This document shows positions 10,758 through 61,456 of a stretch of DNA of 64,000 nucleotides, one piece after another. Below the pieces are notes generated by a model. The model saw only the letters and a list, made by a program, of their open reading frames with translations, was not told where the DNA came from and made no database searches. The position numbers and the translations under genes were made by a program. Numbering within the stretch: position 1 is the first letter of the stretch; each line of letters opens with the position of its first letter. Origin of the DNA: Minisyncoccota bacterium (lineage in GTDB: Bacteria; Patescibacteriota; Minisyncoccia; Phycocordibacterales; Phycocordibacteraceae); the NCBI GenBank assembly GCA_017991635.1, contig JAGOQE010000001.1, forward strand, positions 131,965 to 195,964, read 5' to 3'.

Positions 10758-12572
10758 ATGGCACTACTCGACTTTTTCGGAAAAAAGAATGACGCTCCTG
10801 AGGTGACTCCTGTCTTACCTAAAGACATTTACGCAGCTGGTGAACTTGATCTTGCAGATACTATTGCACCTGCTGCACTCAAGGTTAATTCAAAAGACAT
10901 TGAAATTGGTGAGCGCTTTGCTCGTACGCTCTACACAATTTCATATCCTCGCTTCCTTGTTGATAGTTGGTTCTCTCCGATTATTAATTTGGATAAACAG
11001 TTTGATATCGGCCTTTTCATCCACCCGCTTGAAACAGGGGCGGCTCTTAAAGGTTTTCAGAAAAAGGTTGCTGAAGTACAAAGCCAAATTGCTGAGCGAG
11101 AAGAGAAGGGGTTTGTCCGTGACCCAATGCTTGATACGGCATACCGTGACCTTGAGGACCTCCGTGATCAATTACAACAGGCGCAAGAACATCTTTTTGA
11201 AGTTGGACTATACACGACTATTTATGGAAACACTAAGGACGAACTCGATAAGGCTGAATCAAAGATACGTGGCATTCTTGATGCAAAGCTTGTGTATTCA
11301 AAACCAGCGCTTTACCGACAGGAGCAAGGTTTTCGCTCTACACTACCGCTCGCCCTTGATGAATTGAATGACCACACTAAACTAAATTCTTCTCCTCTCT
11401 CTTCACTCTTTCCGTTTGTCTCTTTCGACCTCACCAGTGATAGAGGGATTCTGTATGGCATCAATCGTCACAACGCCTCACTCATTCTTTTTGATAGATT
11501 CTCTCTAGAAAACTACAACTCTGTAGTATTCGCAAAATCAGGCTCCGGAAAATCATATGCGATTAAACTCGAGATTCTACGCTCATTGATGTTTGATACT
11601 GACGTCATTGTTATTGACCCTGAACGGGAGTACGAATACCTTGCTCAAGCAACTGGGGGTAGACTCTTTAACATCTCACTTTCTTCTGAGCACCACATTA
11701 ACCCCTTTGATTTGCCAGTAGTCAAAGATGACGAGGACCCTTCAGACATTCTTCGAAATAACATCATTACACTTGTTGGTCTCTTCCGTATCATGCTCGG
11801 AGGGCTTACGCCTGAAGAGGACGCAATTGTTGATCGCGCAATTACCGAGACTTACGCCCTCAAGGACATCACTGGCGACCGGGACTTTACCGGAATGGAA
11901 CCGCCTCTTCTTTCTGATTTTGAGAGTGTACTTTCTGGTATGGAGGGAAGTGAGTCGCTCGTACAACGTCTTTCCAAGTACACGCACGGCACCTGGTCAG
12001 GATTCATCAATCAGCCAACCAATATCGATATTAATAAACAGTTCATTGTGTTTTCAGTGCGAGACATGGAGGACGAGCTTAAACCTGTTGCTATGTACAT
12101 CGTCACGCATTACATATGGAATGCGGTTCGAAAAGAGCTCCGTAAGCGTCTTCTTATTATTGATGAGGCGTGGTGGATGATGAAGTCTGAAGATACTGCT
12201 TCATTCCTCTACTCTCTCGCAAAGCGTGGACGTAAATACTACTTAGGCGTCTCCACCATTACGCAGGACGTGGAAGATTTCTTGCGCTCTCCGTATGGCC
12301 GTCCAATTCTCACAAACTCATCAATGCAACTGCTTCTTAAACAGTCGCCAACAACTATCGACACACTGCAACAAACGTTCAACCTCACTGATGAGGAAAA
12401 ATATCTCTTGCTTGAGTCTGGAGTAGGGGAGGGGCTCTTTTTCGCGGGCCTAAAGCACGTAGCAATTAAAATTGTGGCCTCCTACACTGAGGATCAAATT
12501 ATTACCTCTGACCCTTCTCAACTTCTTGCCATTCAACAAGAGCGCTTGCGCCTCAATAGCGAAGGCGCGTAG
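10758..12572 (+). CDS. VirB4/TraC/TrbE-family T4SS ATPase, central + C-terminal ATPase domain
   Basis: Walker A VVFAKSGSGKSYAIK, Walker B LLIIDEAWWMM. Upstream VirB4 middle-domain similarity (FARTLYTISYPRF...). Combined with 10110-10751 gives an ~817 aa VirB4. Confidence 0.85.
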   Translation: MALLDFFGKKNDAPEVTPVLPKDIYAAGELDLADTIAPAALKVNSKDIEIGERFARTLYTISYPRFLVDSWFSPIINLDKQFDIGLFIHPLETGAALKGFQKKVAEVQSQIAEREEKGFVRDPMLDTAYRDLEDLRDQLQQAQEHLFEVGLYTTIYGNTKDELDKAESKIRGILDAKLVYSKPALYRQEQGFRSTLPLALDELNDHTKLNSSPLSSLFPFVSFDLTSDRGILYGINRHNASLILFDRFSLENYNSVVFAKSGSGKSYAIKLEILRSLMFDTDVIVIDPEREYEYLAQATGGRLFNISLSSEHHINPFDLPVVKDDEDPSDILRNNIITLVGLFRIMLGGLTPEEDAIVDRAITETYALKDITGDRDFTGMEPPLLSDFESVLSGMEGSESLVQRLSKYTHGTWSGFINQPTNIDINKQFIVFSVRDMEDELKPVAMYIVTHYIWNAVRKELRKRLLIIDEAWWMMKSEDTASFLYSLAKRGRKYYLGVSTITQDVEDFLRSPYGRPILTNSSMQLLLKQSPTTIDTLQQTFNLTDEEKYLLLESGVGEGLFFAGLKHVAIKIVASYTEDQIITSDPSQLLAIQQERLRLNSEGA

Positions 12573-12595
12573 AAGAATGAGGTACTATAGTACCA

Positions 12596-13261
12596 ATGCC
12601 TCCTCAAGAGACACCTGAAAAGAAACCACGTATAGGGTTATTGACTGCACTTGCTCTTGTGCTTGTAGCTTTAATTTTTGATGGCGGACAATTTCTTGTT
12701 GGTCTAATACCATTTCTTGATATTGTGCTTCTTCCTATTGTGGGAATAACGGCATCAATCGTTTTTTGGATTTGGTTTATGTTGATTGACCCAAGCCTTA
12801 TGTCTGGAGCAAAGGCATTTAAAAATCAGCTTGCTATGGCAGGGATGTCGATTGCGACAGTTATCCCTTTCCTTGATATGTTGCCTGAAATTACAGCGGG
12901 CGTGGTTGCGGTTATTCTCATATCTCGTGCCGAGGACATGGGTCTTTCGGTCAGTGACCTGATTAAAACCGGTTTAAATATCGCAAAGAATCCAGTACTT
13001 GGTACTGCTGAGGCAGTGGTGAGCGCCAAATCTAAAGAAAGAGAGAAAAAGGGTGGTGGAGGTGTTGGAAGTTTTATGGCAAACAGAGTAGGAGGAGACC
13101 GAAAGGCCGTTGGGAAACCTCTACCACAAGATGGAGTAAGAAGAGCCAAAGGATATGCCGGTCCAACTATTAATAAGGAGCCCACAACCTCAAAACAGAC
13201 TCCTTTGGTAAGTGGTGGAAAACCCTCACCGCTAGTATCAGAGGCTAATCGCTGGCGATAA
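12596..13261 (+). CDS. Hypothetical polytopic membrane protein with Gly-rich disordered C-terminal tail (T4SS-like operon)
   Basis: 3-4 hydrophobic helices in first 120 aa, then KEREKKGGGGVGS tail. Confidence 0.35.
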   Translation: MPPQETPEKKPRIGLLTALALVLVALIFDGGQFLVGLIPFLDIVLLPIVGITASIVFWIWFMLIDPSLMSGAKAFKNQLAMAGMSIATVIPFLDMLPEITAGVVAVILISRAEDMGLSVSDLIKTGLNIAKNPVLGTAEAVVSAKSKEREKKGGGGVGSFMANRVGGDRKAVGKPLPQDGVRRAKGYAGPTINKEPTTSKQTPLVSGGKPSPLVSEANRWR

Positions 13262-13287
13262 GTTAACCTCTGGATTTCAATAAAAAT

Positions 13288-14298
13288 GTGGCGAGAAGGG
13301 CGTATACTAAATGCATGATACGAGGTTTTTATACGTTGTTTTTTGTCGCATTGTTTTTCGTTCCGCTGACTACTTTTGCGCAGGGCTATAACCCTCAGGA
13401 TTCTCTTTCGGTAAGTATTGTTCCGGAACACCCAAAACCTTATGAGACTGTTTCTGTTACCCCAAGGAGTTCACTCCTTGACCTTATATCAAGTACGATA
13501 ACGATTTCAGCAAACGGGCAAAAGGTTGAGCAGGGGAGCGGTTTGGTTACTGGGTATGTTCGAGCAGGCGCTCCAGGAGAAAAAACCACCATTACTGTTT
13601 CAGTTGTATCGGGAGGAACTACGTACACAAAAACGGTAGTAATTCGGCCAGCAAGTGTGGCGCTCGTCGTAGAACCAACATCAACAACACATCCCTTTTA
13701 CCTTGGTGGAAGCCTGGTGGCATCTGAAGGGCCGGTTCGTCTTGTTGCTATTCCCGATTTCCAAAGTACGCCTGGTGTTTCCATAAAGAACGAGCAGCTC
13801 ACCTATACGTGGAGATTAGGCCAACAGGTCTTACAAACTGTTTCTGGAATTGGAAAGAGTTCAGTCACAGCAACAGCTCCAGTTCGTTACAGAGATGCAA
13901 CACTGTCAGTTACGGTGACAAATTCAGAAAACACCATGGTGGCCTATGCTTCAACAAGCATCGCTCCTACCGATCCATTAATAAAGGTGTACGCGAATGA
14001 TCCTCTCCTAGGCCCTCTTTTTGATCATGCACTTCCAAACTCACTCACCATGGAAACGACTGAGCAAACCTTCAGAATGGTTCCGTATTTCTTTGCCACG
14101 ACACCAAGCATGTCATGGAACGTGAACGGGAGTACAGGAGGAGTAGAGAGAGATGTCACAGTGCGAGCAACAGGGAATGGAAAAGGGTCTGCGGTTATAG
14201 AAGCTTCTGCCAAGCTCGCCGAAACATTCCAAAACGCGAAGACTTCATTGAGCGTATCATTTGGTGAACAGTCTGGTCTTGGTATATTTGGACTATAG
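13288..14298 (+). CDS. Hypothetical secreted beta-rich protein (T4SS-like operon)
   Basis: Signal peptide ...FFVPLTTFAQG. Thr/Ser/Val-rich repeats suggest Ig-like beta-sandwich domains. Confidence 0.35.
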   Translation: MARRAYTKCMIRGFYTLFFVALFFVPLTTFAQGYNPQDSLSVSIVPEHPKPYETVSVTPRSSLLDLISSTITISANGQKVEQGSGLVTGYVRAGAPGEKTTITVSVVSGGTTYTKTVVIRPASVALVVEPTSTTHPFYLGGSLVASEGPVRLVAIPDFQSTPGVSIKNEQLTYTWRLGQQVLQTVSGIGKSSVTATAPVRYRDATLSVTVTNSENTMVAYASTSIAPTDPLIKVYANDPLLGPLFDHALPNSLTMETTEQTFRMVPYFFATTPSMSWNVNGSTGGVERDVTVRATGNGKGSAVIEASAKLAETFQNAKTSLSVSFGEQSGLGIFGL

Positions 14299-14300
14299 CT

Positions 14301-15218
14301 ATGAAACGAACACTTTTCTTTATTGGAAGTCTCGCACTACTAACTCCGGCACTGGTCTTTGCACAAGACACCACCTTTGTTCCATTAACTAACCTTCCTG
14401 GAATTAGTGGTGTTTCCGGGTCTCCCGACCTGACCTCAATCCTTAACAATATCTACCGCATATGTATTGGTGCTGCTGCGGTTATCGCAGTCTTTCAAAT
14501 TATGCGTGCGGGTGTGCTGTTCATGTTCAACAAGGGCAGTATTTCTGAGAATCAAGAAGCTAAGCAGTTAGTACAGATGTCGATTTTAGGGCTTATTTTG
14601 GTACTTTCGCCAGTAATCATTTTTAGTATCATTAATCCTAAGATTCTTGAGTTGAATTTTGGTGTTGATCAACTTAAGACAAACTTTACTGGTGGTGTTT
14701 CTGGAACAGGGACAGCGCCAACCGCTCCTGGCACAGGCACTAATGATGGGGCAGTGGTTCCACCCCCTTCAATCATTCCAGCGACAGGAGCCACAAACAC
14801 AGGCTGCCCTGTAATTGCAGACAATCAAATTTTGACAGAGCCTGACCTGTACCAGAAACAGCAATGCTGCGCGAATCAGACAAATGACATGGTTACCTGT
14901 AGTGCGCAAGCTCAAACTCGCCAAGGTAATACGGTGGACTATTGCGGGTGTGCGATAAACGAAAAGACAATTACGTTCCATGATGCGTACGAGAATACAA
15001 ACGGCGCACGTAATAGAATTGGTTCTGTCCCCCCTGAGAAGGCAACTGTAGATGCATTTGTAGGGAAGTGTACTCAATATGGCGGGAGGATGGATTACAA
15101 GGATGTGTGGGAAGGATTTGGAGACAAATTTAGGGTCTGCCCCTCAACAATTGTTGTACCTGAAGGAAAAAATTATGACTGCGTTCTTGTAGAGGCAACC
15201 TGTAAGGATGACGACTAA
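14301..15218 (+). CDS. Candidate T4SS pilin-like (VirB2/TrbC-like topology) protein fused to a Cys-rich C-terminal domain
   Basis: Sec signal (ALVFA|QD), then two hydrophobic helices separated by a short polar loop (IYRICIGAAAVIAVFQIMRAGVLFMF / LVQMSILGLILVLSPVIIFSIINP), as in VirB2/TrbC pilins. Followed by ~170 aa with about 10 Cys. Confidence 0.3.
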   Translation: MKRTLFFIGSLALLTPALVFAQDTTFVPLTNLPGISGVSGSPDLTSILNNIYRICIGAAAVIAVFQIMRAGVLFMFNKGSISENQEAKQLVQMSILGLILVLSPVIIFSIINPKILELNFGVDQLKTNFTGGVSGTGTAPTAPGTGTNDGAVVPPPSIIPATGATNTGCPVIADNQILTEPDLYQKQQCCANQTNDMVTCSAQAQTRQGNTVDYCGCAINEKTITFHDAYENTNGARNRIGSVPPEKATVDAFVGKCTQYGGRMDYKDVWEGFGDKFRVCPSTIVVPEGKNYDCVLVEATCKDDD

Positions 15219-15221
15219 CCT

Positions 15222-16433
15222 ATGCAAAGAATATTCCTTATCGTAGCAAGTATTATTTTCGTCGCCGGTATTGGTATTGGTGTGTACTTCTTTTTTTTCC
15301 AAGACAAAGCAACACTCTCTGTTGATACAGGAAATACGTTCGGAACTTCTGGAGACACCACCACAACGACTGAAGAAGACGATACTGGACCTCTATTGGT
15401 TGGAGCTGGTGAAGAGGTGTTACCTCAACTTTTCAAGATTACTGATAAACCTATATCATCTGGCATTGTTGCTCTTTCCATCCCTCCAACGCTCACCGCA
15501 TCAAGTACCGGCGTAAATCGAGGAGATGTTGAGGTTCGCTACGTTGACAGAACAAGTGGAAATATCTATGCATATAGAGCGTACGAGCGAACTTTAACGC
15601 GCACCTCAAATAGGACCGTTCCAGGAATACAGGAGGTATCATGGCTTCCAAATGGCGAGACCGCTCTTGTTCGCTTTCTTTCAACAGATAGTTCCACGAA
15701 TACCGAAGCAGTCGAAACGTATGTACTACCTGCAACAGGGGAGGGTGGCTTCTTCCTTGAGCGAGGGCTTTCGCAAGTGCTTGGCGTTGGTTCTTCAACA
15801 CTCTTTACTCTCAAGACAAGCTCATTTGGCTCAACAGGCACTGTAGCGAATAGTAAAGGCGAAGTGGTGAGAACTGCGTTTACTTCAACACTCTCTTCAC
15901 TTCGTGTTTTTGCTACCTCAAAGGGGTATACAGCACAGACGAAAGCGTCGTCATCGCTTGATGGGTACGCGTTTTCTATTAGCACAACAGGAGCGCTCTC
16001 AAGAATACTTGGCCCACATAAAGGCTTGTCCATCCTACCGAACGCTGATGGTACGCTTGTGCTGTATTCATACCAGTCGGAAGGGTCCATGCGTATGGCG
16101 TTACTCAACCGAAATTCAGGCGATGTGACCGCCCTTCCGCTTTCTACACTTGCTGAGAAGTGCACATGGTCTGGAGACGAGAAATCAATCTATTGCGGAG
16201 TTCCTCAAAGCGCGAAAGGGAATCTTCCCGACGAATGGTATCAAGGTGCGCGTTTCTTTACCGATAGGATTTGGAAAATTGACCTCTCTGATCGTGTCGC
16301 GACACTACTCCTAGACCCTTCAAAAGCAGAGGGTGTGGCTATTGATATGGTAAGTGTGTCTATTGATAAGTCTTCTGACTTCCTCTTCTTCAAAAACAAG
16401 CAGGACGGCTCCCTCTGGGCGTACGATATTTAA
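15222..16433 (+). CDS. Hypothetical membrane-anchored beta-rich (possibly beta-propeller/TolB-like) protein; last gene of T4SS-like operon
   Basis: N-terminal TM (IFLIVASIIFVAGIGIGVYFFFF). Ser/Thr-rich beta strands. Motifs such as SLWAYDI, WSGDEKSIYCG. Confidence 0.3.
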   Translation: MQRIFLIVASIIFVAGIGIGVYFFFFQDKATLSVDTGNTFGTSGDTTTTTEEDDTGPLLVGAGEEVLPQLFKITDKPISSGIVALSIPPTLTASSTGVNRGDVEVRYVDRTSGNIYAYRAYERTLTRTSNRTVPGIQEVSWLPNGETALVRFLSTDSSTNTEAVETYVLPATGEGGFFLERGLSQVLGVGSSTLFTLKTSSFGSTGTVANSKGEVVRTAFTSTLSSLRVFATSKGYTAQTKASSSLDGYAFSISTTGALSRILGPHKGLSILPNADGTLVLYSYQSEGSMRMALLNRNSGDVTALPLSTLAEKCTWSGDEKSIYCGVPQSAKGNLPDEWYQGARFFTDRIWKIDLSDRVATLLLDPSKAEGVAIDMVSVSIDKSSDFLFFKNKQDGSLWAYDI

Positions 16434-27578: not shown

Positions 27579-29949
27579 ACATCAAAAGCGAATAGTGCTT
27601 CTTGATGCTCATGCCATCATCCATCGCGCATATCACGCCCTCCCTGACTTCACTGGTCCAGAGGGACAGCCCACCGGAGCTTTGTACGGGCTCACCTCAA
27701 TGTTGATGCGCATCATTACTGACCTTAAGCCAGACTATATTGCTGCGTGCTATGACCTTCCTAAACCGACCGTGCGTCATGAGGCTTATGAAAACTATAA
27801 AGGGACTCGCAGCAAAACTGACGACGCCTTGAAGACACAGCTACAGTCGTCTCGTGATGTCTTTGAAGCGTTTTCAATTCCTATTTACGAACGTGAGGGA
27901 TTTGAAGCGGACGACTTGCTTGGCACCATTGTTGAGATGACGAAAGATATGCCTGAGCTAGAAGTGGTGATTGCTTCAGGCGATATGGACACCCTTCAAC
28001 TTGTTGAAGGGGAGCGAGTTAAGGTATACACCCTCAAGAAGGGAATTAATGACACTATTTTATATAGTGAAAAGGACGTTAAAGAGCGTTTTGGTTTTGA
28101 TCCGGAGCTCATTCCTGATTTTAAGGGGCTTCGCGGAGACCCGTCAGACAATATCATCGGTGTTCCTGGCATCGGTGAGAAAACTGCAACTGAACTCATC
28201 GTTAATTTTGGTTCGTTGGAGAAGCTATTCAAAACGCTCCACAAGGACGAAAACCTACTTCTTGAAAAGGGAATAAAACCTCGCATCGTTAATCTCCTTA
28301 AGGAACACGAAGAAGACGCGCTGTTTTCAAAGATGATTGCGACAATTCGACTCGATGCGCCAATAGCATTTCGAGTGCCTGAAACAACGTACCTTGAACA
28401 CGTACGTGCTGACACGGTTGTTGCCTTGTGCGACACGCTCGGATTCCGTTCTCTTCGTCCGCGCGTAAGACAGGTTCTTGGTGGAGTGGAAGTTGATGAA
28501 GAGCAGCTCGATGCTGAACCTGATGTTGTAGAAGATATTAGTAAGGAACGTATGTCTGAAGCGCAAGCCATGCTGTGGTTGCTCTCTTCTGAGTTCACTA
28601 ATCCAAAACTTGAGGACATCATGGCCTACACAAAAGCAAAAACGTTTAGTGAGGCGCACGACACTCTTTACAAGAGCATTACTTCTACCGGATCACTTAA
28701 ACGGGTCTACGAAGAAATCGAAGCACCGTTGATTCCTGTCGTACTAAAGATGGAACAACATGGCGTGCTCGTTGACACTAAGACACTCGAAGGACTCAAG
28801 GAGAAGTATCGAGCAGAATTGGAAGGGGTTGAGAAGACTATCTACAGGGCGGCAGGGCACGAGTTCAATATCAGCTCACCCAAACAGCTCGGCACCGTTC
28901 TGTTTGAAGAACTCGGCCTTATGGCCAAGGGTCAAAAAAAGACAGCGGGAGGACAACTTTCCACTCGAGAAAGCGAGCTTGAAAAGATACGCGACTTACA
29001 CCCAGTGATAGAAGCTATTTTGGAGTACCGACAGATTCAGAAACTTCTTTCTACCTATATCGAAAGCATGCCACCACTACTGGATGAGCACTCAAGGCTT
29101 CATGCAGATTTTCTTGCAACAGGAACGACTACGGGAAGAATGGCCAGCCAAAACCCAAACCTGCAGAATATTCCGATACGTACTGAGCGGGGTAGAGCCA
29201 TTCGTCATGCCTTTGTGGCCCCCAAAGGGTACACGCTCCTCGGTCTTGATTACTCGCAGGTTGAACTTCGCATCGCTGCCATTTTGTCTGGAGACGAAAA
29301 ACTCAAGGAAATATTTATGAGTGGCCGAGATGTACACCAGGAAGTTGCCGCAGCGGTGTTTAATGTGCCGTCGGATGCTGTTGATAGGGAGATGAGAAGG
29401 CGGGCAAAAATAATAAACTTCGGCATCTTGTACGGTATGGGAGTTAATGCTCTTAAGACACAGCTTGGAACAACGACAGCAGAAGCTCACGCTTTCTACG
29501 ATGACTACTTTAGAACGTTTAATACACTCGCTGAGTATCTGGAAACTACTAAGGGGTTTGCACGGAAGCACGGTTACACCGAAACACTGTACGGGCGTCA
29601 GCGTCAATTTCCGGAAATGAAATCAAGTTTGCCCTATGTGAGGGCTCAGGCAGAACGCATGGCAATAAACGCGCCAATTCAAGGCACTCAAGCGGACATT
29701 ATCAAAAAGGCCATGGTTGCTATTGATGCGTACCTTGAGGAGAAGAATCTTGCTGAAGAAGTACATCTTATTCTTCAGGTTCATGACGAACTAGTGTTTG
29801 AGGTGAACGATCGAATTCTCGCTGTAGTTGCTCACGAAATACAGCGCTGTATGGAAACTGTCCTTACAGAAGAAGAGTCAAACGGAGTACCTATCCGTGC
29901 TGAAGCAAAGATAGGTAAAGACTGGGGAAGTATGGAGTCATACGTATGA
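27565..29949 (+). CDS. polA: DNA polymerase I (5'-3' exonuclease + family A polymerase; reduced/absent 3'-5' exo domain)
   Basis: N-terminal 5' nuclease (RIVLLDAHAIIHRAYHA..., GIGEKTA). Pol motif A LLGLDYSQVELRIAA, motif B RRRAKIINFGILYGMG, motif C LQVHDELVFE. 794 aa. Confidence 0.9.
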   Translation: MKQNKHQKRIVLLDAHAIIHRAYHALPDFTGPEGQPTGALYGLTSMLMRIITDLKPDYIAACYDLPKPTVRHEAYENYKGTRSKTDDALKTQLQSSRDVFEAFSIPIYEREGFEADDLLGTIVEMTKDMPELEVVIASGDMDTLQLVEGERVKVYTLKKGINDTILYSEKDVKERFGFDPELIPDFKGLRGDPSDNIIGVPGIGEKTATELIVNFGSLEKLFKTLHKDENLLLEKGIKPRIVNLLKEHEEDALFSKMIATIRLDAPIAFRVPETTYLEHVRADTVVALCDTLGFRSLRPRVRQVLGGVEVDEEQLDAEPDVVEDISKERMSEAQAMLWLLSSEFTNPKLEDIMAYTKAKTFSEAHDTLYKSITSTGSLKRVYEEIEAPLIPVVLKMEQHGVLVDTKTLEGLKEKYRAELEGVEKTIYRAAGHEFNISSPKQLGTVLFEELGLMAKGQKKTAGGQLSTRESELEKIRDLHPVIEAILEYRQIQKLLSTYIESMPPLLDEHSRLHADFLATGTTTGRMASQNPNLQNIPIRTERGRAIRHAFVAPKGYTLLGLDYSQVELRIAAILSGDEKLKEIFMSGRDVHQEVAAAVFNVPSDAVDREMRRRAKIINFGILYGMGVNALKTQLGTTTAEAHAFYDDYFRTFNTLAEYLETTKGFARKHGYTETLYGRQRQFPEMKSSLPYVRAQAERMAINAPIQGTQADIIKKAMVAIDAYLEEKNLAEEVHLILQVHDELVFEVNDRILAVVAHEIQRCMETVLTEEESNGVPIRAEAKIGKDWGSMESYV

Positions 29950-30602
29950 TGTACCTTTTTACAGGAACTGATAGTGACAAGGTGCGTAAGCAAGCATTTG
30001 CACTCGTTGATGCTTCACGAAAGAAAGCGCCTATGGCGCCGTATATTCGTTTGGCTCCAGAAGAGGTGTCACCAGAGTCGCTTGAAGGAGCACTGCACAC
30101 ACAAGGATTATTTTATGACCGTTCACTCGTTGTCCTCGATGACCCATTTCAAATTACAGAATCATCAGATGTTCTACTTGAGCACTTGGACTTACTCCAG
30201 AAATCAGAAAATCCAGTATTTATTATTGCGCCAAAGTTACTTCCCGCACGAAGAAAGAAAATTGAATCAAAGGCCACCAAGGTGTTTGTATACGACGTAA
30301 AGGAAAAGGCCGAAGCGCGAGGATTTAATAGTGGGCTTGTTAATGCGCTAGGTGCAAAGGACGGAAAAGCATTGTGGTTGGAACTTATGAAGGCCTCGAG
30401 TGCCGGAGACCCTGCTGAGCTCGTGCACGGACTTCTTCATTGGAAGGCGCGAGATCTTATGGAGAAGGGGAGTCGGGTATGGAGTGCCCGAGATGCGCGC
30501 GCACTTTCAATCTCACTCATACTTCTTGTAAGTGAAGCGGGGAGAAGCGAACTGCCGCTTCAGGATGCGCTTGAGCGTTTTGCGCTCTCACTTACAAAAT
30601 AG
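29946..30602 (+). CDS. Possible DNA polymerase III delta subunit (HolA)-like protein
   Basis: Translationally coupled to polA (ATGA overlap). Weak resemblance to HolA N-terminal domain. Low confidence. Confidence 0.3.
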   Translation: MMYLFTGTDSDKVRKQAFALVDASRKKAPMAPYIRLAPEEVSPESLEGALHTQGLFYDRSLVVLDDPFQITESSDVLLEHLDLLQKSENPVFIIAPKLLPARRKKIESKATKVFVYDVKEKAEARGFNSGLVNALGAKDGKALWLELMKASSAGDPAELVHGLLHWKARDLMEKGSRVWSARDARALSISLILLVSEAGRSELPLQDALERFALSLTK

Positions 30603-33946: not shown

Positions 33947-34144
33947 CGCGTTTCGGGTAGGAACCGTGATTACACGTTCGGTCACGGTTCACTAGTTCGC
34001 TTCGCTCTCAAGTGTCCGCGACCCCGCCTCACTGTCCTCGAGGACTCAGACATGTTCCGGCTTTCGATTCCTAACGAGAAGCGCGAAGGCGCTTCTCTCC
34101 GAGAGCACCATATGAAAAAACGCCCGTGTGGGCGTTTTTTCATA
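33947..34144 (-). repeat. tRNA-linked structured repeat, copy A (minus orientation, downstream of tRNA-Arg-GCG); includes 70 nt perfect palindrome 34088-34157
   Basis: Reverse complement of 34006-34061 equals core GGAATCGAAAGCCGGAACATGTCTGAGTCCTCGAGGACAGTGAGGCGGGGTCGCG shared with copies at 38493 and 43987. Preceded by CTTC-loop hairpin. The palindrome CCGAGAGCACCATATGAAAAAACGCCC/GGGCGTTTTTTCATATGGTGCTCTCGG embeds an inverted copy of the tRNA 3' end. Confidence 0.7.
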
Positions 34145-34219
34145 TGGTGCTCTCGGTAGGAATCGAACCTACATTACCAGCTCCGCAAGCTAGCGTCCTA
34201 TCCATTGAACGACGAGAGC
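34145..34219 (-). tRNA. tRNA-Arg (anticodon GCG), CCA encoded
   Basis: Hand fold: acceptor GCTCTCG/CGAGAGC, D-arm GTTCAATGGATAGGAC, anticodon loop TTGCGGA, T-arm GTAGGTTCGATTCCTAC, 3' ACCA. Confidence 0.7.
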
Positions 34220-34757: not shown

Positions 34758-34848
34758 TGTGTATAGTGAAAAAAGTATTCATGCACAAATAATAAAACCC
34801 GCGGTGCGGGTTTTAACTTAACATCGTTTCCGTTTTCCCCGGTACACT

Positions 34849-34939
34849 GCGGAGGAGGTGAGATTCGAACTCACGGTCCCGTTTCCGAGACTCCTGTTTT
34901 CAAGACAGGTGCAATCGACCACTCTGCCACTCCTCCGCA
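34849..34939 (-). tRNA. tRNA-Ser (anticodon TGA), long variable arm
   Basis: Hand fold: acceptor GCGGAGG/CCTCCGC, anticodon stem-loop CCTGTCTTGAAAACAGG, long variable arm, T-arm GTGAGTTCGAATCTCAC. Confidence 0.7.
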
Positions 34940-35081
34940 CTATACCCGGGATTAGTTCAACATCGTCGCGGTGCTCCGTGTTTCACTTAACAATACAAGC
35001 GCAACCACAACTCTGCCACTCCTCCGTATCATAGAGTGATACACGAAAAACGGAATTTACACAATCTGGTACCATGGGGGT

Positions 35082-38361: not shown

Positions 38362-38433
38362 GCCCCCATAGCTTAATGGATAAAGCAGGAGACTTCTAAG
38401 CTCTTGATCTTGGTTCGATTCCAGGTGGGGGCA
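38362..38433 (+). tRNA. tRNA-Arg (anticodon TCT)
   Basis: Hand fold: acceptor GCCCCCA/TGGGGGC, D-arm GCTTAATGGATAAAGC, anticodon loop CTTCTAA, T-arm CTTGGTTCGATTCCAGG. Confidence 0.7.
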
Positions 38434-38690
38434 CAGCGTGAACGAAGTGAATAGCGTGCTCCCACAGAACTGTGCCTTCGCACAGTTCGTCTGGAATCGA
38501 AAGCCGGAACATGTCTGAGTCCTCGAGGACAGTGAGGCGGGGTCGCGTACCTTGGTCTTCTGCGAATACTTGGAGCAGAATACCTAGCGATACGTGACCG
38601 ATGCGAGAGCGCGACCACAATTTCTTGAGCGCAGCGATTAGAAATTTGAAGTACCCTTGTGGTGAAGCGAACTTCCAGGTGGGGGCACAA
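38434..38690 (+). repeat. tRNA-linked structured repeat, copy B (downstream of tRNA-Arg-TCT), flanked by 17 nt direct repeat of the tRNA 3' end
   Basis: CTTC-loop hairpin 38464-38492, then core GGAATCGAAAGCCGGAACATGTCTGAGTCCTCGAGGACAGTGAGGCGGGGTCGCGTACCTTGGTCTTCTGCGAATACTTGGAGCAGAATACCTAGCGATACGTGACCGATGCG (38493-38605). TTCCAGGTGGGGGCACA occurs at 38419-38435 (in tRNA) and 38673-38689. Confidence 0.75.
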
Positions 38691-38725
38691 ATACAAAAAG
38701 AGCGCCTTGGCGCTCTTTTTGTGTA
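38691..38725. terminator. Bidirectional intrinsic terminator between repeat copy B and tRNA-Val
   Basis: AAAAAGAGCGCCTTGGCGCTCTTTTT perfect palindrome with A/T runs on both sides. Confidence 0.7.
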
Positions 38726-38801
38726 TGTGGTGGGCGATAGAGGACTCGAACCTCTGACCATCCCGGTGTAAACGGGGTGCTCTACCAACTGAGCTAATCG
38801 C
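38726..38801 (-). tRNA. tRNA-Val (anticodon TAC), CCA encoded
   Basis: Hand fold: acceptor GGGCGAT/ATCGCCC, D-arm GCTCAGTTGGTAGAGC, anticodon loop TTTACAC, T-arm AGAGGTTCGAGTCCTCT, 3' ACCA. Confidence 0.7.
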
Positions 38802-41849: not shown

Positions 41850-41931
41850 AGGCCCAGGTGGTGAAATTGGTATACACGCATCCTTGAGGTGGATGTCCTT
41901 TCGGGGGTGGAGGTTCAAGTCCTCTCCTGGG
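41850..41931 (+). tRNA. tRNA-Leu (anticodon GAG), long variable arm
   Basis: Hand fold: acceptor GCCCAGG/CCTGGGC, anticodon stem-loop CATCCTTGAGGTGGATG, variable arm CCTTTCGGGGGTGG, T-arm GAGGTTCAAGTCCTC. Confidence 0.7.
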
Positions 41932-42167
41932 CACAAAGACGAAGGAGTCCTATGCGTAAGCATGGGACTCCTGTCGTTTTGTAGCTCAGGAGAGGACTTG
42001 GATGACGGAGGTCGCGAAGCCGCGCGAAGCGCGTGACCGAGTCGGGGTCGCGTCACTTATGAGTCTGTCAGCAGACGAATTAGTGAAACGTGACCAAAAG
42101 TGTAATCACGTGTCCTCTCCTGGGCACATATGAAAGAACGCCTTCGGGCGTTTTTTCATATGTGCCC
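41932..42167 (+). repeat. tRNA-linked repeat, degenerate copy D (downstream of tRNA-Leu) ending in direct repeat of tRNA 3' end and a 55 nt perfect palindrome/terminator
   Basis: Hairpin 41936-41975. Segment 42030-42106 similar to the 3' part of copy A (TCGGGGTCGCG..CACTT...TAGTGAA.CGTGACC...GTGTAATCACG). GTCCTCTCCTGGGCACA repeated at 41917-41933 and 42107-42123. Palindrome TCCTGGGCACATATGAAAGAACGCC-TTCG-GGCGTTTTTTCATATGTGCCCAGGA 42113-42167. Confidence 0.6.
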
Positions 42168-42268
42168 AGGAATCAATGTGTCGGTACACATTGCGTGAGG
42201 GTTTGAATGACGGAAGTTACAAGGCAGCGCAGTAAGTTGGCAGTGACAGAAATTTGTTATGCTAAATA

Positions 42269-43847: not shown

Positions 43848-43920
43848 TAAACCACATGGCGGCTATGGTGTAACGGTTAACACTACAGGTTGTGGCTCTG
43901 TCGATCCGGGTTCGATTCCC
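43848..43920 (+). tRNA. tRNA-His (anticodon GTG) with G-1
   Basis: Hand fold: G-1 paired to discriminator C, acceptor GCGGCTA/TAGTCGC, anticodon stem-loop ACAGGTTGTGGCTCTGT, T-arm ATCCGGGTTCGATTCCCGG. Confidence 0.7.
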
Positions 43921-44127
43921 GGTAGTCGCCCAAAAAGCACAAGACTAACGTGTATACGTTAGTCTTGTTGCGTTTGCAGGCTACCAGGAATCGAAAGCCG
44001 GAACATGTCTGAGTCTTCGAAGATAGTGAGGCGGGGTCGCGTATCTTAGTATTCTGCGAATACTTGAAGCAGAATACTTAGCAATACGTGACCGATGCGC
44101 GAAGCTTCCCGGTAGTCGCCCCAAAAG
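43921..44127 (+). repeat. tRNA-linked structured repeat, copy C (downstream of tRNA-His), flanked by ~21 nt direct repeat of tRNA 3' end
   Basis: Hairpin/terminator 43928-43962, then core 43987-44099 (GGAATCGAAAGCCGGAACATGTCTGAGTCTTCGAAGATAGTGAGGCGGGGTCGCGTATCTTAGTATTCTGCGAATACTTGAAGCAGAATACTTAGCAATACGTGACCGATGCG), about 90% identical to copy B. TTCCCGGTAGTCGCC at 43908-43922 and 44106-44120. Confidence 0.75.
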
Positions 44128-57994: not shown

Positions 57995-60900
57995 ATGGAA
58001 GGCAAAGAACCATCAGAGGTCGAGCGTAGTGAAGAGGCAATACTCTCATTTTGGGAAGCGCACGACATATTTCACAAGACTCTCGCCAAGCCTTCACCAA
58101 AGGGAACCTTTGTGTTTTATGAAGGACCTCCAACAGCAAACGGTCGCCCTGGAGTGCATCACCTTGAATCACGTTCATTTAAAGATGCGGTTCCACGTTA
58201 CAAGACGATGCGGGGATACCATGTGCCTCGCCGCGCAGGCTGGGATACACACGGATTGCCGGTCGAGCTTGAAGTAGAGAAGGAGCTCGGCTTCAAGGGA
58301 AAAAAGGATATCGAAGTTTACGGTGTCGCCGAATTTAATAAGAAGTGCCGAGAGAGTGTGATGAAGTACATACATGAGTGGGAAAAGTTTTCTCGTCGTA
58401 TGGCGTATGGTGTGGATCAAGAAAAGGCGTACTTCACCTTCAACGCTCCCTTCATGGAGACTGCGTGGTGGGTCCTGAAGCAAACCGCAGAGCAGGGAAG
58501 ACTCTACAAGGACTACAAGGTGGTGCCATGGTGCGCACGATGCGGTACCGGACTTTCTTCCCATGAACTTGCTCAAGGATATGCTGATGTTAAAGACCTT
58601 TCTATCACAGCGAAGTTTGAGTTAGTCGATGAACCCGGAACCTTCGTTCTTGCCTGGACTACCACACCATGGACCCTGCCCGGAAACGTTGCGCTTGCCG
58701 TGGGGAAGGATATTGCATACGGGCTCTATGAAAAAGACGGCGAAAAGGTAATCGTGGCCGTTGCTCGCGCAGAGAAGGTTCTACCCGACTGGTCTCTTTT
58801 GAAAGAGATGCAGGGACACGAACTTATTGGGAAGACGTACAAACCGCTTTATCCATTTGCTAAAGATATTGCAAAGGGTGAGGAGCTTACGAAATTTGAA
58901 AAGGCATACCAGATTTATCATGCAGATTTTGTAACGACTGAAGATGGTACGGGGGTCGTTCACACTGCCGTTATGTATGGTCAGGATGACTTTGTTCTCG
59001 GCTCGTCCCTTGGTTTGCCCAAGGTGCATCTCGTTGGGGCTGATGGCCGATTCGTTCCTGGTACTGATTTTCTTGAAGGTAGGTTTGTAAAAGAGGAAGA
59101 TGAAAACGGAAAGCCAACGCTTGCCGTTGATATTGTGGATGATTTAACTCGTCGCGGACTTTTCTTTGCGAAGGAGAATTACGCTCACTCGTATCCGTTT
59201 TGTTGGCGTTGTAAAACTCCACTTATCTACTACGCGCGCGATTCATGGTACGTCCGCATGCAAGATTTGCAGGATGCGATGGTTGCTGAGAATAAACGGG
59301 TTAATTGGGAGCCTTCTCATATCAAAGACGGTCGTATGGGCGAGTGGCTTAAGGGCGCAAAAGACTGGGCAATTTCTCGCGAACGGTATTGGGGTACACC
59401 ACTTCCTGTGTGGGAGAGCATTGATGGGGAAGAGCGTGTGGTGATTGGTTCTATCGAGGAGCTTAAAAGTAAGGTCAAGAAAAGTGGCAACACCTACATC
59501 ATGATGCGTCATGGTGAGGCAACTCATAACCTAGAAAAGCGACTCGACTCTTCACTCGCAGGCTCTCATCTTACTGAGAAGGGAAGGCAAGAGGTACTTG
59601 CACGTATCCCTGAACTTAAGGCTAAGAAGATTTCTCGAGTATATGTATCGCCCCTTGCGCGTGCGAGGGAGACCGCAGACTTACTTACAAAGGAGCTTGG
59701 CCTTGCCGAAGAAGTCATAATCGTTGATGAGAGACTTCGCGAATTTACCTTTGGTGAGTTAGAAGGAAAGACAAGTGCTGATTTTGCAGAAGTTCGTGAG
59801 AATCTTCCGTACGATGGTGTCATTACTGAAGGAGAGAGTTATCAGGACGCAAAGAACCGTTTCGGAGATTTTCTCTATGAGGTAGAGCGCACACATAAGA
59901 ACGAAACAATACTTATAGTCACGCACGGTATTGGTTTTGAAGCGTTGGGTGCGGTAGCACAAGCTTCAGACAAAGAGACTTCAAAGAAGCTCATCAATGA
60001 ACTATTTGCACGACCAGCCGAAGTGCGTGCTCTTAACTTCATCCCACTTCCACACAACGAAGACTTTGAGCTTGATTTGCATCGTCCTTACATAGACGAG
60101 ATTGTCTTGATTGGTGCGGGCGGACAAGAACTTACACGCGTGAAAGATGTTATGGACGTGTGGTTTGATTCGGGTGTCGTGCCGTTTGCACAAGACCACT
60201 ATCCGTTTGAAAACAAGAAAGCGTTTGATAAGCAGGCATATCCAGCAGACTATATTTCAGAAGCAATAGACCAGACGAGAGGTTGGTTTTACACCTTGAT
60301 GGCTGTTGGCACACTCTTGAAGCGCGGACGACCATATAAGAATGTAATTTGTCTCGGGCACCTTCTTGATGGGGAGGGACAGAAAATGAGTAAGTCAAAG
60401 GGAAACATTATTAATCCGTGGGAGGCAATGGATGAGTGGGGTGCCGACACGCTTCGCTTGTGGATGTATAGCGTAAATCAGCCGGGAGATTCAAAGAGCT
60501 TTTCAGAAAAGACCGTAAAGGAAACTGCACGTAGTTTGTCTTGGTTTGAGAACAGCCTCAAGTTCTATGAACTCTTTAAAGATGTGCCTCATACCGGGGG
60601 AACGCTCCAGGCAGTAGATGTGTGGATGTCAGCGCGTACCAGACAGACCGTCTGTCGTATGACTGAATACATGGACGACTACAAACTCTATGACGCCACA
60701 CGAGAGCTGCAGGGATATTTTGAGGACGTATCTCAATGGTATGTGCGCCGTATACGCGACCGTGCACGAGCGGGGGATAGGGCAGCGCTCCAGACATTGC
60801 GTCACGTACTTCATACAGGGGCTCGATTGCTCGCGCCGTTTTCACCATTCTTGGCTGAGCGCGTGTATCAAGTAGTGAAGTATCACCATGACCCTGAGAG

Positions 60901-61456
60901 CGTTCACTTAAGCGAGTGGCCAGAGCACTTCTCATCAATCTTGAGTCGCTTGCTTGGAGACGATGCTAAGGACAAAAACGTTATTGCCTCAATGGCGCGT
61001 GTGCGTGCTATTGCTTCACAAGGGCTCATGGAGCGCCAAAAGGTAGGCATAAAGGTACGTCAGCCTCTTGAACGACTTACGGTTTCTGGAGTGCCGCTGG
61101 CTCAGGCATATGTCGCACTCATTCGCGAAGAAGTGAATGTCGAAGAGGTGGAATTTGATGAGAAGCTCGAGGAAGGTACCATCATTCTCGACAGCACACT
61201 CACGCCCGCTTTGATTAAGAAAGGTGACGTGCGTGAATTTCTTCGAGCACTCGCTGATGCGCGAAAGCAGATGGAGCTTGAGCCAACAGACATGGTGTTG
61301 GTGTCTGTAGATGGAACACTGGAGGCACTACTCCTTGGAGAGGAGATACCTGGTGTAGAGCGTCTTTCATCACAAGAGGTGCGCGGCACACATACAGTAC
61401 TGTTATCAACGGGAGAGGCGACATTTAGTGTCTCTGTACGTACACATGCGACATAA
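57995..61456 (+). CDS. ileS: Isoleucyl-tRNA synthetase carrying an inserted histidine-phosphatase (phosphoglycerate-mutase-like) domain
   Basis: HIGH region PPTANGRPGVHHL, editing-domain signature TTPWTLPGN, WAISRERYWGTPLPVW, KMSKS (GQKMSKSKGN). Between PVW and DLHRPYID lies about 180 aa with RHG-phosphatase motifs (MMRHGEATHN; SPLARARETA; ILIVTHGIG). Confidence 0.85.
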   Translation: MEGKEPSEVERSEEAILSFWEAHDIFHKTLAKPSPKGTFVFYEGPPTANGRPGVHHLESRSFKDAVPRYKTMRGYHVPRRAGWDTHGLPVELEVEKELGFKGKKDIEVYGVAEFNKKCRESVMKYIHEWEKFSRRMAYGVDQEKAYFTFNAPFMETAWWVLKQTAEQGRLYKDYKVVPWCARCGTGLSSHELAQGYADVKDLSITAKFELVDEPGTFVLAWTTTPWTLPGNVALAVGKDIAYGLYEKDGEKVIVAVARAEKVLPDWSLLKEMQGHELIGKTYKPLYPFAKDIAKGEELTKFEKAYQIYHADFVTTEDGTGVVHTAVMYGQDDFVLGSSLGLPKVHLVGADGRFVPGTDFLEGRFVKEEDENGKPTLAVDIVDDLTRRGLFFAKENYAHSYPFCWRCKTPLIYYARDSWYVRMQDLQDAMVAENKRVNWEPSHIKDGRMGEWLKGAKDWAISRERYWGTPLPVWESIDGEERVVIGSIEELKSKVKKSGNTYIMMRHGEATHNLEKRLDSSLAGSHLTEKGRQEVLARIPELKAKKISRVYVSPLARARETADLLTKELGLAEEVIIVDERLREFTFGELEGKTSADFAEVRENLPYDGVITEGESYQDAKNRFGDFLYEVERTHKNETILIVTHGIGFEALGAVAQASDKETSKKLINELFARPAEVRALNFIPLPHNEDFELDLHRPYIDEIVLIGAGGQELTRVKDVMDVWFDSGVVPFAQDHYPFENKKAFDKQAYPADYISEAIDQTRGWFYTLMAVGTLLKRGRPYKNVICLGHLLDGEGQKMSKSKGNIINPWEAMDEWGADTLRLWMYSVNQPGDSKSFSEKTVKETARSLSWFENSLKFYELFKDVPHTGGTLQAVDVWMSARTRQTVCRMTEYMDDYKLYDATRELQGYFEDVSQWYVRRIRDRARAGDRAALQTLRHVLHTGARLLAPFSPFLAERVYQVVKYHHDPESVHLSEWPEHFSSILSRLLGDDAKDKNVIASMARVRAIASQGLMERQKVGIKVRQPLERLTVSGVPLAQAYVALIREEVNVEEVEFDEKLEEGTIILDSTLTPALIKKGDVREFLRALADARKQMELEPTDMVLVSVDGTLEALLLGEEIPGVERLSSQEVRGTHTVLLSTGEATFSVSVRTHAT

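Follow-up and report, generated by a model that had tools for sequence, protein, structure and literature searches.

A probable family of ORF-less insertion elements at tRNA gene 3′ ends in Patescibacteria

Introduction

Integrase-mobilised elements of transfer RNA (tRNA) and transfer-messenger RNA (tmRNA) genes, together with their non-autonomous derivatives (CIMEs), insert at the T loop or 3′ end of a gene, supply a replacement 3′ end, leave direct repeats of the target and accrete in tandem; sublocation classes of the tyrosine-integrase elements in tRNA genes were reportedly set out by Williams in 2002. CTXphi and integron attC sites act as folded single strands. Here we describe elements of about 190–255 bp, each without an open reading frame (ORF), that recall both kinds of system and lie at tRNA 3′ ends in a 64,000-nt stretch of a Minisyncoccota bacterium genome (Patescibacteria; assembly GCA_017991635.1, contig JAGOQE010000001.1, positions 131,965 to 195,964, forward strand). 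We call this whole stretch the window and count positions from its first letter.

Along the tRNA strand, all four complete copies in the window have the same order of parts, T-H-T′-B-T, sometimes with a linker hairpin between B and the second T. The proximal T is an element-borne replacement copy of the tRNA 3′ end, and H is a hairpin that differs between copies and often resembles an intrinsic terminator. T′ is an inverted copy of the 3′ end of the host tRNA itself, from the T loop to past the acceptor end; in two copies (E1 and E3) it is divided into T′a and T′b by a small hairpin, P0, that falls precisely on the acceptor/T-stem boundary, the two P0 hairpins having different stems and an identical loop. 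B is a conserved body of about 100 nt (GAAAGCCGGAAC ... GAGGCGGGGTCGCG ... TAGYGAWMCGTGACC). The distal T is the displaced original tRNA end, a direct repeat of 16–21 nt (16–17 nt in the window copies). The gene stays intact because the element brings its own copy of the end that it displaces.

No described family that we tested accommodates this element: its outcome is that of integrase-type, tRNA-targeting elements, and its layout is that of folded single-strand sites. Direct repeats of the 3′ part of the tRNA and a restored gene end are present, as for a tyrosine-integrase element, but the element contains no integrase gene beside an attachment (att) site. Unlike integrase-mobilised elements, these are only about 200 bp long, carry an inverted copy of the target, also use the end of a protein gene (ftsZ), and have a conserved, covarying fold as their interior rather than arm-type protein sites. 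With CTXphi attP(+)/XerCD and integron attC they share a hairpin of two inverted copies that mimics a duplex target, a fold that appears strand-specific, and an order that matches T-H-T′-B-T, running from one target half through hairpin loop, inverted copy and cargo to the other target half. The target here is a tRNA end rather than dif or attI, however, the stem changes with each target, and the "cargo" is a structured body of 100 nt; dependence on XerCD or IntI characterises the CTXphi and attC systems. As for use of one strand, the fold is more stable on the sense strand, mismatches in T′ have no strand bias, and RNA and single-stranded DNA forms are indistinguishable.

Miniature inverted-repeat transposable elements (MITEs) and palindromic repeats (Correia, RPE, ERIC, REP/BIME, and the palindrome-associated transposable elements, PATEs, derived from IS200/IS605) are likewise short, non-coding, multi-copy, hairpin-rich, non-autonomous and assembly-breaking. 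They differ from the present elements, which are strictly specific for gene 3′ ends and repair the gene, are conserved across a whole bacterial lineage, and have 16–21-nt repeats that are target copies rather than fixed terminal repeats. A MITE needs fixed terminal inverted repeats and a 2–10 bp duplication, whereas the repeats here are target copies that differ between the Arg, Leu and His loci. A PATE needs an insertion with no target duplication, a fixed 4–5-nt motif 5′ of the insertion and set-back subterminal hairpins; here there are direct repeats of 16–21 nt, different bases stand to the left of the junction (GGTTC, GGGC, GCC), and the 3′ hairpin ends exactly at the junction. IS110/IS1111 bridge-RNA elements need an ORF for a DEDD recombinase beside a non-coding guide RNA, and this element has no ORF.

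Group I introns that lie within Patescibacteria tRNA genes are also ORF-less and structured, and carry a guide-like segment that pairs across the insertion junction (PMC13011429), a resemblance found in the same phylum. They are sited in the anticodon loop, in contrast to the T loop or 3′ end used here, and the element gave no match to them in Rfam, either at the gathering threshold or at E ≤ 5–10. Group I introns are far longer than the element's body. Because the gene end is duplicated, the element needs no splicing.

Results

Two palindromes are modules of larger elements

A first-pass annotation of the window had noticed two long palindromes that embed inverted copies of tRNA 3′ ends, and both exist. 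Palindrome 1 has perfect 27-nt arms, CCGAGAGCACCATATGAAAAAACGCCC at 34099–34125 and its exact complement at 34130–34156, around a GTGT loop. Its right arm covers the 3′ end of the minus-strand tRNA-Arg(GCG) gene (34145–34219), including the encoded CCA, and the outer 12 nt of its left arm (34099–34110) are an exact inverted copy of that end, as had been described. Palindrome 2, with arms at 42118–42142 and 42147–42171, has 25 pairs, one of them a G·T on the plus strand that is an A·C mismatch on the minus strand. It had been ascribed to the 3′ end of tRNA-Leu(GAG); it does not adjoin that gene (41852–41934), but a direct copy, 17 nt long, of its 3′ end (42112–42128) that lies 193 bp downstream. 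In a close strain (L123) the same palindrome directly adjoins the tRNA-Leu gene itself. Folded as DNA, both palindromes lie 10 to 16 standard deviations below shuffled sequence, palindrome 1 reaching -35.7 kcal/mol against -5.9 ± 2.1 in shuffles.

The inner motif reported as common to both, CATATGAAARAACGCC, is indeed found four times at 0 mismatches and nowhere else in the 64 kb; at ≤3 mismatches there are 6 matches against 1.07 expected, and 0 of 100 shuffles reached 6. One inner palindrome does occur with two different tRNA ends; H normally varies from copy to copy, and the outer arms are target-specific copies in every member, whichever hairpin they enclose. Regarding the proposed bidirectional terminator, palindrome 1 does have a G+C stem between A6 and T6, as read from the letters, but it is not listed by a terminator consensus scan; the scan lists the minus-strand version of the palindrome-2 hairpin (H2), as well as the H hairpins of elements E2 (H1) and E4. 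By form, the inner hairpins would qualify as intrinsic terminators, H of E1 reading AAAAAACGCCC-ACAC-GGGCGTTTTTT on the tRNA strand.

As the first-pass annotation supposed, the palindromes did not arise by chance and form part of something mobile with a tie to tRNA 3′ ends; they are also physically part of the repeat family that it mentioned. The mobile unit is not the palindrome, though: T-H-T′ is one module of the larger T-H-T′-B-T, and each palindrome is the tRNA-proximal module of an ORF-less insertion element of about 190–255 bp at a tRNA 3′ end. The insertion junction is at the other end of the element, between the end of the body (...CGTGACC) and the direct repeat.

A repeat search of the window, with tRNA genes called by ARAGORN and Rfam, gave four complete copies (E1 at Arg(GCG), E3 at Arg(TCT), E2 at Leu(GAG) and E4 at His), each just 3′ of a tRNA and in its orientation; a fifth copy (E2′) is decayed:

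34145–34219, minus strand: tRNA-Arg(GCG), host of E1 (ARAGORN, Rfam); its last ~23 nt, including CCA, are the element-borne T of E1
34099–34156: palindrome 1, the T-H-T′a part of E1, with the tRNA 3′ end at 34145–34156 and T′a at 34099–34110
34109–34146: H of E1, a terminator-like hairpin inside CATATG...CATATG
34076–34097, minus strand: P0 of E1, GAGAAGCGC-CUUC-GCGCUUCUC on the tRNA strand
34063–34075, minus strand: T′b of E1, the inverted T loop and T-stem 3′ strand of tRNA-Arg, 94% complementary
33980–34062, minus strand: body B of E1, GAAAGCCGGAAC ... GAGGCGGGGTCGCG ... CGTGACC
33965–33979, minus strand: linker hairpin of E1, CGUG-UAAU-CACG
33947–33964, minus strand: distal T of E1, a decayed direct copy of the tRNA-Arg 3′ end, GTTCCTACCCGAAACGCG
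38362–38434, plus strand: tRNA-Arg(TCT), host of E3 (ARAGORN, Rfam)
38436–38689, plus strand: E3, a 254-bp insertion; 17-nt direct repeat TTCCAGGTGGGGGCACA at 38419–38435 and 38673–38689
Parts of E3, plus strand: T′a 38456–38465, P0 38467–38488, T′b 38491–38501, B 38502–38599, linker 38600–38672
Sequences of E3: body end and linker ...GAAGCGAAC; T TTCCAGGTGGGGGCACA; start of H GCGTGAACG
41852–41934, plus strand: tRNA-Leu(GAG), host of E2 (ARAGORN, Rfam)
41936–42128, plus strand: E2, a 193-bp insertion; 17-nt direct repeat GTCCTCTCCTGGGCACA at 41919–41935 and 42112–42128
Parts of E2, plus strand: H1 41943–41972, T′ 41974–42000, B to 42095, linker hairpin 42096–42111
42112–42250 (3′ limit approximate), plus strand: E2′, an older, decayed element; palindrome 2, with H2 inside 42127–42162
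Parts of E2′, plus strand: T′a 42161–42171, P0-like hairpin 42174–42193, T′b-like GAGGGTTTGAA 42197–42207, body remnant TGACGGAAGTT...
43859–43931, plus strand: tRNA-His(GTG), host of E4 (ARAGORN, Rfam)
43932–44121, plus strand: E4; direct repeat TTCCCGGTAGTCGCCC at 43916–43931 and 44106–44121; covariance model 85 bits
Parts of E4, plus strand: H 43939–43968, T′ 43979–43995, B 43996–44093, linker 44094–44105

Palindrome 2 stands apart from the tRNA-Leu gene because the later insertion of E2 came between them. The linker hairpin of E1 covaries in E2, L025, L029, L051 and L067 (L-numbers here and below name the loci or contigs compared). A separate feature at the E3 locus is a putative bidirectional terminator at 38686–38729, common to the direct repeat of E3 (natively the tRNA-Arg(TCT) end) and a convergent tRNA-Val; its arms are 90% complementary and reach 2–3 nt into both tRNA ends.

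Empty sites and exchange of modules among close strains

The first-pass annotation had proposed a comparison of orthologous loci, and the contigs of close strains do show empty sites and swapped modules. We used contigs whose neighbouring proteins are identical to those of the window, from strains 94–100% identical to it. L137 has a clean empty site for E3: tRNA-Arg(TCT) is followed directly by its native terminator, the flanks are near-identical, and the window differs by a 254-bp insertion bounded by TTCCAGGTGGGGGCACA. The tRNA-Leu locus has three alleles. In L123 the gene is followed by palindrome 2, precisely without E2; the window has both elements; and in L121 and L122, the sequence passes from H1 and T′ straight to the body remnant. 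L130 has an empty site for E1 (...GAGAGCAC/AAATGG, the slash marking the junction), where the native tRNA-Arg(GCG) has no CCA, while CCA is present in the element-borne copy of E1 and in its inverted copy. In L067, a species-level relative, the orthologous tRNA-His is without an element, so that E4 is absent. At tRNA-Leu(GAG) an element is kept in an orthologue at ~75% nucleotide identity.

Copies exchange modules by recombination, as we read the sequences, and this would also explain why an identical H occurs at the Arg and Leu loci. The element at tRNA-His in L124 is a mosaic: its H and first hairpin differ, its second hairpin matches that of E2, and its linker and direct repeat are those of E4. 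E3 and E4 have bodies that are 91% identical, yet T and T′ correspond to Arg in the one and to His in the other; movement or recombination of a body must therefore renew its target-specific parts.

Short-read contigs of this species (L119–L127, L128–L141) often end in or beside elements (at window positions 42040, 43884, 34071 and 34046), so the elements break assemblies. Close strains also have a gene for an RNase T-family exonuclease between tRNA-Arg(GCG) and rpsT (L130, 116–652), where the window has E1 instead (33947–34144); the gene loss is thus associated with the element.

Distribution, targets and variants

A scan with the body motif of one genome per species gave at least 118 loci. 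Nearly all of them, more than 115 among the matches listed, are in metagenome-assembled Patescibacteria, of the Paceibacteria/Parcubacteria group; all counts in this section of loci, motif matches and tRNAs likewise refer to the matches listed. The matches in L015, L036 and L065 lie in GC-rich coding DNA and were set aside as chance. A same-strand tRNA ends ~75–145 nt upstream of 82 of the 121 motif matches; these host tRNAs have 28 anticodons, and their exact copies measure 12–20 nt when inverted and up to 21 nt when direct, the direct ones mostly beginning at T-loop position 56/57. There are two classes of insertion point: class 1 in the T loop after C56, and class 2 at the very 3′ end of the tRNA, beside the discriminator base (junction GGGC/ACAAG, with a short T′ and a CUGC-loop hairpin).

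The idea of a unit that targets tRNA 3′ ends stands as far as tRNA hosts are concerned, but is too narrow, since the targets also include tmRNA and the 3′ end of ftsZ. The tmRNA hosts (L028, L061, L096) were missed by ARAGORN and recovered and confirmed by Rfam. In L005, L058 and L064 the element sits inside the 3′ end of ftsZ, and the proximal and the displaced copy, which differ synonymously, each encode ...VPAFLRRSKLK*.

We built a covariance model on 122 copies; it gave 137 matches in 100 loci and, in the window, exactly four (E1: 33966–34075, 82 bits, E = 5e-21); E2′ was not detected by the model. Other body types with the same layout exist (e.g., GAAGCCCGATTGAGC...GGGGTAC...CUGUAAGGUUC/), and the family is therefore larger than our search pattern. 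The body motif lies behind 86 of the 205 tRNAs in these loci, and an inverted copy T′ of ≥9 nt is present in 55 of those 86, against 0 in the control. Of the 119 tRNAs without the motif, 37 are nonetheless followed downstream by an inverted copy of ≥9 nt (0 in the control), and solo T-H-T′ palindromes without a body occur at tRNA-Lys in L044 and tRNA-Pro in L072. Tandem arrays of at least two elements behind one tRNA or tmRNA were found in L116, L027, L030 and L028; the repeats of the L116 array are 100% identical in sequence, which suggests unequal crossing-over or repeated insertion into a regenerated target. One Patescibacteria locus that carries an element, L056, also has a LOOT RNA (Rfam RF03000) at 850–971.

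Conserved fold of the body

On the tRNA-sense strand the body has two covarying hairpins, both evident in an alignment of 122 sequences. Hairpin A has the form GNC-GGAG-(variable hairpin)-CGA-GN′C, with the middle pair seen as C-G, G-C, A-U and U-A; hairpin B has the form GGUCGCGAG.AC-UUAG-(variable hairpin)-CUUAG-U-A-ACUCGUGACC, with a bulged A and a G·U pair that is invariant in the sample. Of the alignment's cells, 96.8% are paired, against 26–38% with slid partners, and 175 cells have changes on both sides, against 54 ± 13 in shuffles; the outer seven pairs were set by the search pattern and are uninformative. The sense strand is more stable than the antisense strand for hairpin B in 117 of 120 copies, and for hairpin A in 93 of 120. 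The conserved G·U pair and the loops of GNRA and UUCG type look RNA-like.

In predicted folds, pairing of T′ with the distal T would close the two hairpins into a three-way junction; pairing of T′ with the proximal T is the long palindrome. For the full co-transcript, the lowest-energy fold predicted has T′ paired with the 3′ half of the tRNA itself, so that the tRNA would misfold. T′ is ~97% exact. The body core CGGGGTCGCGAG ... CTCGT (e.g., 44032–44043) resembles the variable loop and T stem of E. coli tRNA-Gly(GCC), including the G·U pair, and the body may be descended from a tRNA, although it escapes the tRNA model of Rfam.

No linked gene and no match to a known family

The elements have no ORF, and none fits inside them. 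None of the 50 window ORFs scanned encodes a transposase, integrase or reverse transcriptase; they are housekeeping genes of the chromosome (dnaA-dnaN, ruvABC, polA, and genes for pili and secretion). No mobility gene recurs among the ORFs within 2.5 kb of 118 elements among the matches listed, where the only clusters are syntenic housekeeping families.

Only the tRNAs reached threshold in Rfam 15, searched at the gathering threshold and at E ≤ 5–10 with the window and with single elements; the body itself gave only chance-level matches to microRNA-like hairpins. The body motif had 0 matches in a viral collection, and a promoter scan found no more sites than in shuffled sequence. Our literature search, which extended to the core sequence, found no description of the element; the TIGR-Tas systems and group I introns in the papers found are unrelated to it. 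Readings as a hammerhead, a hepatitis delta virus (HDV)-like ribozyme, domain V of a group II intron, box C/D RNA, a retron or a diversity-generating retroelement (DGR) were rejected, their defining motifs being absent from the conserved positions.

Discussion

Favoured explanation and proposed mechanism

We favour, at a probability of roughly 60%, the explanation that these are non-autonomous, site-specific insertion elements which repair the gene end that they interrupt and act as a folded single strand. That they are a family of insertion elements we regard as highly probable; the single-strand mechanism, taken separately, we put forward tentatively. A folded single strand is favoured because an inverted copy of the target is always present and the fold is strand-specific. 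Such a copy would be useless to a double-strand recombinase but would provide a single strand with a duplex target, and so points to a single strand.

The sequences themselves show the architecture, the polymorphism of insertion, the spread over genomes and targets, the covariation, the strand bias and the lack of a linked ORF; we infer a single-stranded intermediate, an enzyme, and a way in which T′ comes to match each new target. The active form would be the folded single strand, in which T′ would give the second strand of a duplex target copy beside B, while B might be a platform for a trans-acting recombinase or itself be catalytic. Strand exchange would take place at the end of the body, (...CGTGACC)/T, and at the matching target position. 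Joining the unit T-H-T′-B between the left part of the target and T would yield T-H-T′-B-T, and would do so equally for double-stranded DNA, single-stranded DNA or RNA; by analogy, integration might resemble that of folded CTXphi DNA or of integron attC sites. Once inserted, copies could recombine and so trade modules, and intrastrand templating probably makes long imperfect palindromes perfect or keeps them so.

Several points weigh against this explanation. No mobilising enzyme was identified, and no excised or circular form was seen. Precise deletion between the 16–17-nt direct repeats would account equally well for the "empty" alleles. That CGGGGTCGCG and CGTGACC are invariant is in part a consequence of the search pattern. 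Mismatches in T′ show no G·U bias (7 vs. 6), so that selection for pairing on one strand is not demonstrated for T′, and an H that is a strong terminator would end transcription before T′-B, so that an RNA form is less likely for the copies concerned, although the G·U pair and the loops look RNA-like. The very high share of tRNA genes occupied, and the persistence of the element in orthologues at ~75% nucleotide identity, could also mean a function for the host.

Alternative explanations

It seems unlikely that T′-B-T is instead a tRNA-mimicking RNA, transcribed by read-through from the tRNA promoter, folded like a tRNA and trimmed by RNase P and by 3′-processing and CCA enzymes, which would be a stable small RNA of the host or an intermediate of RNA-mediated mobility of a retro- or reverse-splicing-like kind. 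In such a layout T′a and the distal T would form the acceptor stem, P0 would stand for the D and anticodon arms, T′b and T would form the T stem, and B would replace the T loop. P0 does lie exactly at the acceptor/T-stem boundary, the fold is specific to the sense strand and includes the conserved G·U pair, the element-borne copy of E1 has the CCA that the native gene does not, and E3, with no terminator between tRNA and T′, must therefore be co-transcribed with the tRNA; the likeness of the body core to tRNA-Gly(GCC) of E. coli also speaks for such an RNA. The body, however, goes unrecognised by the Rfam tRNA model even at E ≤ 10, a terminator-like H precedes T′ in many copies, and the proximal tRNA end is not followed by CCA in most copies among the matches listed; moreover, the co-transcript is predicted to misfold the tRNA, as noted above. 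There is no linked reverse transcriptase, and Patescibacteria are reported to lack group II introns (PMC13011429), which counts against RNA mobility of this sort. We find it improbable, and more so than the RNA, that the elements are a trailer module useful to the host in termination, processing or regulation, spread by duplication and kept by selection rather than selfish. Such a module would suit the high occupancy (86 of 205 tRNAs with the body motif and at least 37 more with an inverted copy and a variant body, among the matches listed), the copy retained at tRNA-Leu(GAG) in the ~75%-identity orthologue, and a terminator provided by H. It is hard to reconcile with presence and absence at three sites among strains of 96–100% identity, with copies inside ftsZ, with decayed copies (E2′ and the distal T of E1) and with tandem arrays.

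Perfect arms, as templated correction would give, the solo T-H-T′ palindromes of L044 and L072, and the convergent tRNA ends with a common terminator at 38686–38729 would all be expected if ordinary bidirectional terminators had grown their stems into the tRNA end by template switching during replication, beside an unrelated repeat. But T′ is systematic (55 of 86 tRNAs with a body vs. 0 in the control, at ≥9 nt among the matches listed), the same H occurs at two different tRNAs, and T′ is often split by P0 and extends right up to the body, an arrangement that stem growth alone could not yield. Stem growth is thus largely refuted as a full explanation, which we rate as very improbable, and may be the source of the perfection of the arms. 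Least probable of all, in our estimate, are leftover attL/attR scars of integrase-type prophages or genomic islands in these tRNA genes: the signature of a tyrosine integrase is a restored gene end together with direct repeats that cover the tRNA 3′ end, beginning at the T loop, yet the size is uniform (~200 bp), the body is conserved and covarying, an inverted target copy is no feature of such scars, the viral collection gave 0 matches, and no integrase was found at 118 loci among the matches listed or among the window ORFs scanned.

Significance

The genomes of Patescibacteria are tiny and can afford little junk; even so, many of their tRNA genes, a large share, bear this element, which is unmatched in Rfam and unmentioned in the literature searched. 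It may be, though we consider it doubtful, that the elements are a new class of mobile element, ORF-less and tRNA-shaped, in which T′ would be a built-in guide and the conserved three-way-junction body a ribozyme or a handle for a structure-guided recombinase or nuclease of the host; folded single strands of RNA or DNA would then be the form that moves, with the 3′ ends of tRNA, tmRNA and ftsZ genes as targets, and much of the tRNA gene set of a major Patescibacteria lineage would have been colonised. Movement that depends on structure or a guide, with no protein of the element's own, would be a new way of site-specific insertion and possibly a reprogrammable one. In practical terms, the element accounts for assembly breaks beside tRNA genes, affects the annotation of tRNA 3′ ends (whether CCA is encoded, and the position of the terminator), and offers ready-made strain markers.

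Other features of the window

Two further tRNA loci have repeats of their own. Downstream of tRNA-Lys(TTT), at 30527–30598, an inverted repeat TTGTAAGTGA...TCACTTACAA surrounds a GAAGCG..CGCTTC hairpin, inside the 3′ end of an ORF at 29946–30602 that has no Pfam match; it could be a decayed element, or the ORF could be over-extended. The leader and trailer of tRNA-Ser(TGA) (34849–34936, minus strand) are complementary over 22 nt (34836–34857 and 34930–34951), extending the acceptor stem, and a second copy of the 5′ end of this tRNA, 85% identical over 27 nt, lies 89 bp upstream at 35007–35033; it may be a different duplication, on the 5′ side.

Among the protein-coding regions, ORFs without a Pfam match at 10758–16433 form a cluster with genes for a TraG-like P-loop ATPase and for a pilin-like protein of type IV secretion. 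At 57995–61456 there is a class I aminoacyl-tRNA synthetase of 1153 amino acids with a histidine-phosphatase (His_Phos_1) domain inserted at residues 502–655, inside its catalytic domain.

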